Made by a program: the position numbers and the translations under genes. A stretch of DNA of 64,000 nucleotides. It comes from Octopus vulgaris. Its lineage: Eukaryota. The notes under the pieces were generated by a model that saw only the letters and a program-made list of their open reading frames with translations, made no database searches and was not told the DNA's origin. The stretch covers positions 70,370,001 through 70,434,000 of the forward strand of contig OX597823.1 of NCBI GenBank assembly GCA_951406725.2, written 5' to 3'. Positions 45,146-64,000 of the stretch are shown piece by piece; the first letter of the stretch is position 1; every line of letters starts with the position of its first letter.

Positions 45146-45654
45146 GAATGCATTATAAATAAACAACGACCCTGCCCCGCTTAAGTCGATCAGCTAACTG
45201 TTCAACATCAACGAAGCACATATATTTTTTTAAATGTCTTACTTTGAAAAATTGCATTCGGTGGGATTAGTAATATTTTTGGTAGAAATGACTAATTGTC
45301 CCTCTTAGCGTTTGGCATGTATATATAATGCCTTCTGGCATGTATGTATAATGCCCTCTATATATAAATTAATATGTTCAATAAGAAATAATTATTTTCG
45401 AAATTTTTTCTCTTATGAGGTTTTTACGCTATCTACCTGACAATTTCTTGTTAAGTTTTCCTTATTAAGTAGTTGTCCTTAATTGCTAAATTTTTATTCC
45501 GAAAAAACTTTTCCTCTCCCGAAATGCAATTCGTAAAAGTTTGCCATTTGACCGGATGTAATATATGTAAACTCACCCATGTGCTTCGTTGATGTTGAAC
45601 AGTTAGCTGATCGACTTAAGCGGGGCAGGGTCGTTGTTTATTTATAATGCATTC

Positions 45655-45702
45655 AGGCCTGCTGATGAGTACGTAAGTATGAAATCACTGTGATACAGGT
45701 CT
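45655..45702 (+). ncRNA. Type I hammerhead motif, array copy 1
   Basis: AGGCCUG-CUGAUGA-GUAC(GUAA)GUAU-GAA-AUCAC(U)GUGAU-A-CAGGUCU; predicted cleavage after 45695. Confidence 0.87.
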
Positions 45703-46135
45703 ATATTTTTTTAAATGTCTTACTTTGAAAAATTGCATTCGGTGGGATTAGTAATATTTTTGGTAGAAATGACTAATTGTCCCTCTTAGCGTTTGGCATG
45801 TATATATAATGCCTTCTGGCATGTATGTATAATGCCCTCTATATATAAATTAATATGTTCAATAAGAAATAATTATTTTCGAAATTTTTTCTCTTATGAG
45901 GTTTTTACGCTATCTACCTGACAATTTCTTGTTAAGTTTTCCTTATTAAGTAGTTGTCCTTAATTGCTAAATTTTTATTCCGAAAAAACTTTTCCTCTCC
46001 CGAAATGCAATTCGTAAAAGTTTGCCATTTGACCGGATGTAATATATGTAAACTCACCCATGTGCTTCGTTGATGTTGAACAGTTAGCTGATCAACTTAA
46101 GCGGGGCAGGGTCGTTGTTTATTTATAATGCATTC

Positions 46136-46183
46136 AGGCCTGCTGATGAGTACGTAAGTATGAAATCACTGTGATACAGGTCT
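46136..46183 (+). ncRNA. Type I hammerhead motif, array copy 2
   Basis: Identical to copy 1, offset +481. Confidence 0.87.
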
Positions 46184-46616
46184 ATATTTTTTTAAATGTC
46201 TTACTTTGAAAAATTGCATTCGGTGGGATTAGTAATATTTTTGGTAGAAATGACTAATTGTCCCTCTTAGCGTTTGGCATGTATATATAATGCCTTCTGG
46301 CATGTATGTATAATGCCCTCTATATATAAATTAATATGTTCAATAAGAAATAATTATTTTCGAAATTTTTTCTCTTATGAGGTTTTTACGCTATCTACCT
46401 GACAATTTCTTGTTAAGTTTTCCTTATTAAGTAGTTGTCCTTAATTGCTAAATTTTTATTCCGAAAAAACTTTTCCTCTCCCGAAATGCAATTCGTAAAA
46501 GTTTGCCATTTGACCGGATGTAATATATGTAAACTCACCCATGTGCTTCGTTGATGTTGAACAGTTAGCTGATCGACTTAAGCGGGGCAGGGTCGTTGTT
46601 TATTTATAATGCATTC

Positions 46617-46664
46617 AGGCCTGCTGATGAGTACGTAAGTATGAAATCACTGTGATACAGGTCT
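46617..46664 (+). ncRNA. Type I hammerhead motif, array copy 3
   Basis: Identical to copy 1, offset +962. Confidence 0.87.
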
Positions 46665-46929
46665 ATATTTTTTTAACTGTCTTACTTTGAAAAATTGCAT
46701 TCGGTGGGATTAGTAATATTTTTGGTAGAAATGACTAATTGTCCCTCTTAGCGTTTGGCATGTATATATAATGCCTTCTGGCATGTATGTATAATGCCCT
46801 CTATATATAAATTAATATGTTCAATAAGAAATAATTATTTTCGAAATTTTTTCTCTTATGAGGTTTTTACGCTATCTACCTGACAATTTCTTGTTAAGTT
46901 TTCCTTATTAAGTAGTTGTCCTTAATTGC

Positions 46930-46961
<32 letters not shown>

Positions 46962-60931: not shown

Positions 60932-61750
60932 TTATAAACTAGGAAAATATATATTTTTTTAGTGAATGTTAAATATAAAAAGAAAATTAATGTTTAAATA
61001 TTATCCATCCCTCTAGAAATATTAATAACAAGGTTATTGTATCTGAAGTCAATTCCAACAGAATTAAGTTTATGTCAAGTAACTCTAAAATTAAAAATTC
61101 TATATGTTGAGTATATATATTGCTCAACATTTAGGGATAGGAATACACGTAACAGTACAGGGCTCAGTAAATTAATTTGGGATCTAAAAGACCACAATGA
61201 ACAATTTATTTTAGAATGGTTGATTCTCTCAATCTCGATACCTTTTGACAAAGGCAAGGAATTCTGTCTTCTCTGTAATTCTGAACTATTTTTCATTATT
61301 TTTTTCTAAAAATCACCTAGTAAACATGGTTATAGAACGTGCATACCAATGTAAACATTGGCAAAAACACACCTTTAGTTCATATAAGTAATCTCTATCA
61401 TTATATATAATTTAAACATTAATTTTCTTTTTATATTTAGCATTCACTAAAAGAATATATATTTTCCTAGTTTATAAGGTTTTATTTAATATACATATAG
61501 TCATATACTTCTCATTTATTTAACTTTTCCTTAATTTATCCCTCCTCTTTCTATAGGCTACTTCTGATGTTATATCATATAACGATTTTTCAAACAATAT
61601 TAATAGCGTTCAGTAAATCACTAAACATATCCATCATTTTCTGTTAAAATGTCTTATTGACGAGTTTCATTTCTTCACTTCCCTGAAGAGAAGATTACAT
61701 TGTTTTACACCATTTTATTCTTTTGGAATAATATCAGTGATATCTTATAT
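60932..61750 (+). mobile_element. Second PLE relic (GIY-YIG C-terminus) with a short inverted terminal segment, truncating the RTE tail
   Basis: STFRDRNTRNSTGLSKLIWDLKD..LEWLILS..PFDKGKEFCLLCNSE parallels the 9717-10337 peptide. 60932-61003 is an inverted copy of ~61408-61478. Confidence 0.78.
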
Positions 61751-61798
61751 ATATATACACGAAAGAAGGTTTGAAAATGCAATTTAAAAGATGTTTAT

Positions 61799-61843
61799 TT
61801 ACTTTACCGGTTTCACTCTTTGGAAAAAGATTGTCAAAAGTAA
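61799..61843 (-). ncRNA. Type I hammerhead motif with U3-A8 core
   Basis: Minus strand reads UUACUU-UUGACAA-UCUUU(UUCC)AAAGAgu-GAA-ACCGGU-A-AAGUAA. Confidence 0.68.
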
Positions 61844-61898
61844 CAAATAGAAACCTTCGAACAGAGACGTCAGTGGCGACACCTGCGGGTCTGACTGC

Positions 61899-61940
61899 GC
61901 TACATTGACAAGGGGCAATACCCCGAAACGCGTCTGTAGC
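61899..61940 (+). ncRNA. Type I hammerhead motif with U3-A8 core
   Basis: GCUACA-UUGACAA-GGGG(CAAUA)CCCC-GAA-ACGCGU-C-UGUAGC: perfect stems I and II, palindromic stem III and a GUC cleavage triplet. Confidence 0.8.
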
Positions 61941-62199
61941 TGTCGGACTGGCAGTGTGAAGCGGCTGACCTCCCTTGTTCGAAGGTTATAATGGATACAG
62001 ATTGTGTATCAATAGCTATCTTGATGGCGGTGGCCTCATGGAGCTGACCAGCGGCAGCGATTATTCTTATATCTATAAGAATGCCATACTAATATGGCGA
62101 TAACAATTAATTTCCAGTAAACGCTGCCGTAATCTCTTTTATAGAGACTTAGTAATTTTAATATTTCTATTATATATATATATATATATATACATATAC

Positions 62200-63670
62200 A
62201 CTGTGCTCCCAGAACAACAGTTTCTGAGACGAGCAGGTCTTTTTGCAAGTGATCCTGGTCTTTTGTTATCTCCTCCATGACTTTCAAGGTCCTGAGATCA
62301 GCCTTCACCACTTCATTCCATGTCTTCCTGGGTATTGTTCTTCTGCATGCTCCATCTACATTAATTGATCAGCATTTCTTTATACAGCTGTTCCCATCCA
62401 TATACATCATGTCTCTACCAGCAGTCTTCTTTTGCACACTACATCTGATTTCTCTTATGCCCAGTTTTTCACTCAACACTTTTATACTAAGTTGTTGATG
62501 CACACTTATGTTGCACATACGGTAGCACTCTAGTTTCACTATTTTCCAGTCTTCTACATTCAAGGACCCTGTCTTATTACTATGCATCATTGCAGTTCTA
62601 ATAGAAGTGTCATATAATCTACTTTTCACTATATGTGAAAGCATAGCTGTAGTAGTTCCCTGAATTTTTTACCAACCTGTTCTTACTTCACCTGCTATAT
62701 TTTTAGAGTAATCACCTATTTACTTCTCCTAGGTAACAAAAGCTATCAACTACTTTTAGCAAGCCATTCAGGTATTTAAGAGAATCAATTTCCAGCCTGT
62801 TCTCAGTAAGTATTGCTTTAGTGCATGCCACATACAAAGCTTACTGTCTCTGTAGTTTACTTGCGATTCCACCACTTTCCTATATTTTGTGTGTCTGTAG
62901 CTTACAATGGCTGCAATATAGGAATTTTATATTCCTCTTTTCTGTATATTGAGTGAAACCATTTCCTTGAAGATACAAGAACCCTGTCTTCTGTGTTGGG
63001 AACTATGTCACCAGCATATAGTAGTGTCCATAGACTCCCAGTCTTAAACTTATTTTTCATGGCTTGTAGGACTATGATGAATAAGAGAGGACAGAAAATT
63101 GAGCCTTATTTGACTCCTGCCATCACATTAAATTCATCACTGAAATTGTTGTTGACTCTGATTTTACTTATCTGCATCTTTGTACATAGCTTGAACAACC
63201 ATCATAAACCATTTGTCTGCATCTAGTTTCCTTAGTGAGTAGCAATTAATGAATGCGGTACCCTGTCAAACACCTCCAAGTCAACAAATCCCAGGAATAG
63301 TGGTCTATTCTCCTGCTGCTGCCTCACTAGGCAGATTGCCAACATAGTATCTCTTCTGGGAATGAAGCCAAACAGTATCTCACCTAGGTCTACTCTGTTG
63401 TCGATCAATTGTGCTATGATTCTCTAATGACCTCAATAACCTGATCCAGTGGTTTGATCCTCCTGTTATTTCTTCTCTCAAAAGCAGCTCTTTTGCCTTT
63501 GTAACTGTTTAGAATGATACTGCAGTTTAAATTATTGGGTATGACACCCTCATCTATAACTTGGATTAACTATCTGGGCAGTAACTATGTATCCTACTTT
63601 GTCAGATATTTTGAGCTTCCTTACAGCTATTTCTGATGAACCTACAGCTTTCCCTCTCTTCATGTCCTTT
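62200..63670 (-). mobile_element. Second degenerate RTE LINE of a related family
   Basis: The minus strand parallels 59300-60450: YKGKRA..NNRRIK, FGFIPRR, FVDLEVFDRVP, KSRLYD..RTAMMH, EKLGI. Confidence 0.82.
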
Positions 63671-64000
63671 ATTGTTAATGTAGTCTAAGTATAGTCTCAT
63701 AGAAGAGACCCTTTTTGTCATGCAGTCAACCTTGACTATGGGATGAAAGCGAGATAAATGTTTCTGTTGAGTTATCTGGAACGTGTTTCATCTTTACCCT
63801 ATAATAGAAAGCAAGGTTTACGATATCGGAAGAATATCGTCTCCTTCCATCATCTTTTTGTTCATTAAGTAGTTCAGGCTTCCGGCAGGCGAAGAGAGAA
63901 GACTTCAAGTACAAATGCTATTTACAACTGGTTTATTTACAGGATTCACAGGATAGGTGTAGTGTGCTGCTCTCAGCTACCATCTTTAGCTGTATGCATT

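Follow-up and report, generated by a model that had tools for sequence, protein, structure and literature searches.

Hammerhead motifs on opposite strands at the junction of two repeat families in Octopus vulgaris

The 64,000-nt stretch of the Octopus vulgaris genome analyzed here (assembly GCA_951406725.2, contig OX597823.1, positions 70,370,001 to 70,434,000; termed “the window”) carries two divergent hammerhead ribozyme (HHR) motifs near its right end, one on each strand and 55 nt apart, with TA tracts on either side (Table 1). Each has the features of a type I HHR, namely a Watson-Crick 3-8 pair, G5, A6 and A9, GAAA, an NUH site and stems I to III. In both, the 3-8 pair is U3-A8, which we accept as valid following an earlier paper (PMC4209133). 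A preliminary description made from the letters alone had reported an HHR on each strand between the TA tracts, both with UUGACAA cores and palindromic 6-nt stems III (ACCGGU and ACGCGU), and all of these were found as described. A relaxed descriptor, in which any Watson-Crick 3-8 pair is allowed, returned both HHRs and one weak match from the 64-kb window, and one match from ten shuffled windows. Rfam scans of the window end and of five loci reported no HHR family, and searches built on CUGANGA do overlook these motifs, as had been predicted.

Table 1. Features at and beside the A/B stretch (positions in the window).
Feature	Position	Strand	Details
Family C, broken coding PLE-type copy	61000..61746	+	GIY-YIG-like C-terminus; neighbor, outside the A/B stretch
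Family C canonical-core HHR	61683-61689	+	CUGAAGA; truncated mid-ribozyme at 61746
Left TA tract	61747..61759		likely target; between B and family C
Family B 3' end	61760..61845	-	truncated just upstream of HHR; outer end is the family's short (tail-less) end
Family B type I HHR	61843-61799	-	stem I UUACUU/AAGUAA; core UUGACAA (U3-A8); stem II UCUUU/AAAGA (5 bp), 2 extra bases, then GAA
Family B HHR, A17	61805	-	preceded by ACCGGU palindrome; predicted cut after 61805
B/A junction	61845..61852		flush, no TA spacer; one base in common at 61845
Family A (subfamily A1) unit, 5'-truncated	61845..62172	+	monomer positions 37-364 of 364; long (tailed) end outermost
Family A long imperfect hairpin	61853..61986	+	HHR at tip; z -7.85
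Family A type I HHR	61899-61940	+	stem I GCUACA/UGUAGC; stem II GGGG/CCCC, then GAA
Family A HHR core	61905-61911	+	UUGACAA (U3-A8)
Family A HHR, C17	61934	+	preceded by ACGCGU palindrome; predicted cut after 61934
Right TA tract	62173..62198		likely target

Several neighboring features lie outside this stretch. Family C is a high-copy family (2,702 candidates in a genome search) whose HHR has some 45 extra nt inserted in stem II. A sequence of about 65 nt occurs in two inverted copies, one at 60933-61000 to the left of family C and the other at 61408-61480 inside it, which suggests an inverted arm of the same family C insertion. On the other side, 62198-64000 of the minus strand translates into a degenerate LINE-type RT fragment, which we take to be RTE-like. 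Farther away, 45221-46931 is made of a 481-bp unit in 3.6 tandem copies that are 99% alike, and the relaxed descriptor finds no HHR in it.

The stretch between the TA tracts had been regarded as one structured, GC/CpG-richer element of about 400 bp. It splits instead at 61845 into two repeat families, here called A and B, and the higher GC belongs to the A part alone (44%, versus 29% in B and 36% in the window), while CpG observed/expected is high in both parts (1.08 and 1.13 versus 0.41). The folding of the 411 nt is indeed stronger than that of shuffled sequence, with z -8.8 and -7.0 for the two strands; however, a single 140-nt hairpin of family A matches this with -7.85 on its own, whereas the isolated HHRs have no advantage over shuffles (z -1.34 and +0.38). 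When the whole stretch was used as the query, all matches except the self-match started at or after 61845 (107 matches; best 40 of 3,085 candidates scored), and with the left part as the query the other matches stopped by 61855 and then ran into different sequence (44 matches; best 40 of 1,372 scored). A junction-centered query gave 53 matches (best 40 of 2,285 scored), among which the self-match alone covers both sides. The genome holds many copies of each half and, among the scored candidates, no second copy of the whole; because such searches score top candidates alone, the uniqueness of the A/B locus is likely rather than proven. The two halves differ from their family majority at 2 of 321 sites (A) and 0 of 83 sites (B) and, by this measure, appear equally young. 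The origin of the HHRs in two different families comes close to an outcome that the preliminary description had named as overturning its reading, that of independent adjacent insertions. The stretch is almost certainly a pair of repeats of known type, both dependent on Penelope-like elements (PLEs), rather than one element; family A is of the non-LTR retrozyme type and family B a non-coding PLE derivative, both with a published core variant. No paper on either family or on mixed-family PLE junctions was found in our literature search, which covered neither Repbase and Dfam nor most subscription papers, so that both families may already be catalogued.

Family A consists of 360-364-nt units in tandem arrays of up to about 8 units with one type I HHR each, which agrees with known retrozymes, whose tandem units measure about 170-400 nt and likewise contain a type I HHR. 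The unit is too short for an RT, and its GC of 44% and strongly folding hairpin agree with a non-autonomous, low-GC, highly self-paired retrozyme. At least 1,416 exact matches to its HHR pattern occur in the genome (reversed control, 0), and no HHR was found on its opposite strand. Three subfamilies (A1, A2 and A3) are about 83-85% alike. Across these three lineages only, 4 of 43 predicted pairs are changed on both sides, HHR stems I and II included, and stem III differs yet stays palindromic, which is the covariation expected of an HHR. Subfamily A2 (core UUGAAAA; L060-L064 and L194-L223) includes many copies without a single difference over 201 nt, as well as arrays of up to about 8 units, and is on these grounds probably the most recently active.

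The minus-strand part of the stretch belongs to family B and represents its 3' end, in line with the earlier suggestion of a PLE terminus. The family B HHR pattern has 567 exact matches in the genome, and in longer copies CA-rich sequence precedes the HHR for over 1.1 kb, with the 5' end beyond the region read. In the copies examined, the 1.1-2 kb ahead of the HHR contained no RT and GIY-YIG open reading frame, and family B, like family A, has no HHR on the opposite strand. An apparent 2.5-kb tandem of B (L055; G000:C2:178200500-178208000) was rejected as a duplication, flanks included, on the two sides of an N gap, which probably reflects an error of assembly. Downstream of the HHR, family B resembles a coding PLE family of the same genome (z 4.1; 0 of 300 shuffles). 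This coding family emerged from a GIY-YIG search that gave 150 matches, 16 of them within 781-aa open frames. It is young and carries RVT_1 and GIY-YIG domains, a CX4CxxC linker and U3-A8 HHRs (UUGAUAA...GAAACAUGU) near the 3' end, with TA-tract ends and the same short and tailed ends as A and B. An RT, a CX2-5CxxC linker, a C-terminal GIY-YIG and an HHR near the 3' end are all as in Neptune-type PLEs; the linker motif is common to Neptune and Nematis (PMC8557442), and we regard the family as a candidate Neptune-type helper, a label taken solely from linker motif and TA targeting. Members of this family (L101-L103 and others), a source of a candidate active enzyme, have a 0.6-1.1-kb 3' region of internal repeats ahead of the HHR. 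Further coding PLEs vary in the core: L091/L108 (G000:C4 near 868,500) and L107/L112 have A3-U8 (AUGAAUA) and C3-G8 with U4C (CCGAAGA), and L092/L109 has a U3-A8 HHR in which GCAA replaces GAAA.

These cores bear on how U3-A8 arose. Within the first 100 HHRs listed for each family, 99 in A are U3-A8 and one is C3-A8, with no G8, and in B all 100 have U3 and 98 have A8. The family consensus is U3-A8 itself, not CUGACGA, and the canonical-core pattern (CUGANGA...GAAACGCGUC) gave 14 matches (control, 4), none of them with the family A stem II. C-to-T and G-to-A changes are common, and eight of the nine retrozyme dimers assayed did not cleave in vitro (bioRxiv 10.64898/2026.07.22.740005), which is what dead motifs decayed by deamination from CUGACGA might look like. 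Such decay is nonetheless barely credible as the source of the variant, as the preliminary description had also argued: U3-A8 is near-fixed in both families and recurs in several families of coding PLEs, A3-U8 or C3-G8 is found in others, and the palindrome of stem III is preserved in four different sequences (ACGCGU, ACAUGU, ACCGGU and AGUACU). The preliminary description had further argued for selection from the same double change in two different HHRs. The presence of U3-A8 in A and B is most likely shared inheritance, since the same core across several coding PLE families makes this the simplest reading, with 3-8 pairing itself being retained.

Viroid-like circular replicons carry ribozymes in both polarities, and the stretch had been read tentatively as one ambisense, viroid-like element of this kind. 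Two intact divergent HHR motifs within a well-folding 411-nt stretch would suit such an element, and these are the only features that the window shares with viroid-like replicons. We consider this reading very improbable, because the halves are near-identical pieces of separate families, each with HHRs of a single polarity and none antisense; family A builds its 364-nt tandem unit without B, no repeating unit here holds both HHRs, and the pair was seen once, with no second copy among the candidates scored.

In family A, in family B and in the coding family alike, insertions finish at either of two fixed 3' ends, a short one or a tailed one. In 223 loci, which are best matches and not a random sample, 74 distinct head-to-head junctions (gap <45 nt; two loci may be one duplicated segment) were counted: 24 of A1, 18 of A2, 6 of A3, 23 of B, 2 of the coding PLE and 1 mixed. 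The mixed one is that of the window, and the remaining 73 join a family to itself. At the 73 junctions away from a locus edge, the outer ends are short plus tailed in 63 (window included), never two alike, and unclassified in 10; same-family junctions alone give 62 of 72, again with none two alike. No TA run lies in the gap of any of these 73, and 53 of the 74 are flush within 8 nt. The window junction (-1) has the same form, with the short end of B and the tailed end of A joined flush over a few bases in common, and TAGAA at 61848-61852 occurs in both parent families. An inverted 5'-truncated arm, a tail at one end and a microsatellite target, here the TA flanks, were found for A and B alike, and this inverted-arm-plus-tail form has been described for EN+ PLEs (PMC8557442, PMC3846280). 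According to PMC11167929, the two ends correspond in vitro to two RT start sites, both target strands being cut and extended, with a dimer predicted.

Based on these observations, we propose that the A/B junction is a single chimeric insertion, to which we give a probability of about 0.55. A Penelope-like (Neptune-type) RT-endonuclease is its likely maker and would have used two different RNAs as templates in one integration event. The enzyme would nick both strands of AT-rich DNA, as suggested by in vitro work on another PLE clade, and reverse transcription would start at two internal RNA sites to give the short and the tailed end (both steps after PMC11167929). One cDNA may have been primed on B RNA at the short start and the other on A RNA at the tail start, after which the two truncated cDNAs would have been joined at a few shared bases. 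A single insertion is favored by the rule of short and tailed ends, the flush junction and the equal youth of the halves, as well as by the existence of a young coding family with a U3-A8 HHR, TA targets and the same ends, which the B 3' end resembles. The more specific picture of a frozen two-template event, in which a dimeric PLE complex primed the two strands on retrozyme and PLE-derived RNAs, is put forward tentatively and is less likely than not. Against a single insertion, there is one case only, and about one in two independent pairs could combine a short with a long end by chance. Inverted arms share alleles beyond unrelated copies (in B 11 of 15 recurrent alleles, 0.73, versus 0.15 between loci; in A1 0.24 versus 0.03), so that they usually come from one source, and none of the 48 family A junctions mixes A1, A2 and A3 arms. 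Against a shared enzyme, the family A 3' region has no similarity to that of the 781-aa PLE (z -0.6) or to other PLE loci tried, and no coding PLE with an end matching family A was found among loci L065-L115.

The site has also been rearranged, since PLE-type elements pile up at TA tracts (three families here) and family C is truncated here. In a real, though less probable, alternative, A and B were inserted separately in one TA tract and the spacer was removed by target-site loss or by a later deletion at the shared bases. The two families have TA targeting in common, different families adjoin at several loci, and the broken family C beside the site and the usual single source of inverted arms are in keeping with it. 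Dividing 1,416 x 567 by some 1.7 million TA tracts puts the number of tracts shared per genome at about 0.5, a rough figure that assumes uniform targets and extrapolates the tract number from the window, and that clustering would raise. However, in all five other cases where A or B lies beside another family (L011, L023, L146, L151 and the C-B pair in the window) TA is retained between them; this list leaves out L113 and L158, where the N107 reference may match through the flank, and similar caution applies to L011. The kind of junction and the kinds of outer end likewise fit the single-insertion form, and the halves are equally young. An assembly error that fused two repeats over a short overlap would also account for a single occurrence. 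The contigs of four public runs at 61300-62700 are swamped by repeats, and none of those listed spans the stretch or skips the element. Such an error is nevertheless quite improbable, as 2.8 Gb in 227 contigs implies long-range assembly, the overlap is just a few bases and the structure obeys a biological end rule.

Returning to the ribozymes, cleavage is predicted solely for dimers formed within one family by pairing of the palindromic stem III, for which the computed duplex energies are -8.9 (A/A), -9.7 (B/B) and -1.8 kcal/mol (A/B). In this model, tandem transcripts of A would thereby yield monomers or circles. The solo pair at 61760-62172 is probably inert, because neither HHR has a same-strand partner and the two, being on opposite strands, would not act together. 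In published assays, many motifs of this kind had little activity or none (PMC4209133, bioRxiv 10.64898/2026.07.22.740005), and in one PLE the HHR needed protein and was dispensable for insertion in vitro (PMC11167929).

Metazoan non-LTR retrozymes include mussel units of about 350-390 bp (PMC7229834, bioRxiv 10.64898/2026.07.22.740005). Family A is like them in its non-coding tandem units, single type I HHR per unit, GC of 44%, self-pairing and co-occurrence with PLEs. It differs in the U3-A8 core, no homologous pLTR was found for it, and its TA targeting, its inverted arms of the PLE kind and its pair of fixed 3' ends go unmentioned in the available part of the published account. As for the PLE HHRs, PMC4209133 already reports about 1,300 matches with U3-A8 covariation in Schistosoma, a small palindromic helix III with a dimer model, and HHR pairs on opposite strands 100-700 bp apart. 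A and B share all three traits of core, helix and opposite-strand pairing; that paper describes no two-family origin for such pairs, whereas the window pair comes from two families, and it gives one extra base at the 5' side of stem II where family B has two at the 3' side. The EN+ Neptune-type PLEs (PMC8557442, PMC3846280, PMC11167929) show the same 5'-truncation, partial tandems and inverted truncated 5' arm, and their one-end tail and microsatellite targets are also seen at A and B insertions; in contrast, the window arms come from different families, and the A tail is about 60 nt, as opposed to 30-40 nt in the published cases.

The A/B stretch is thus not a new class of element, and supplements of the cited papers may list related HHR motifs; its mixed junction offers a modest lead on mechanism. 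In this one genome, thousands of young repeats that carry an HHR escape CUGANGA descriptors and Rfam, and the 3-8 pair can be U-A, A-U or C-G. The PLE insertion marks of family A (TA targets, inverted arms and two fixed ends) support the proposal, already published, that retrozymes rely on PLE enzymes. The inverted-insertion mechanism of PLEs would be directly testable with two RNA templates if the A/B junction arose in one event. Should the two-template event prove true, inverted arms of PLE insertions could derive from separate RNA molecules, and the locus would be direct genomic evidence for a Neptune-type enzyme that mobilizes both animal retrozymes and PLE partners.
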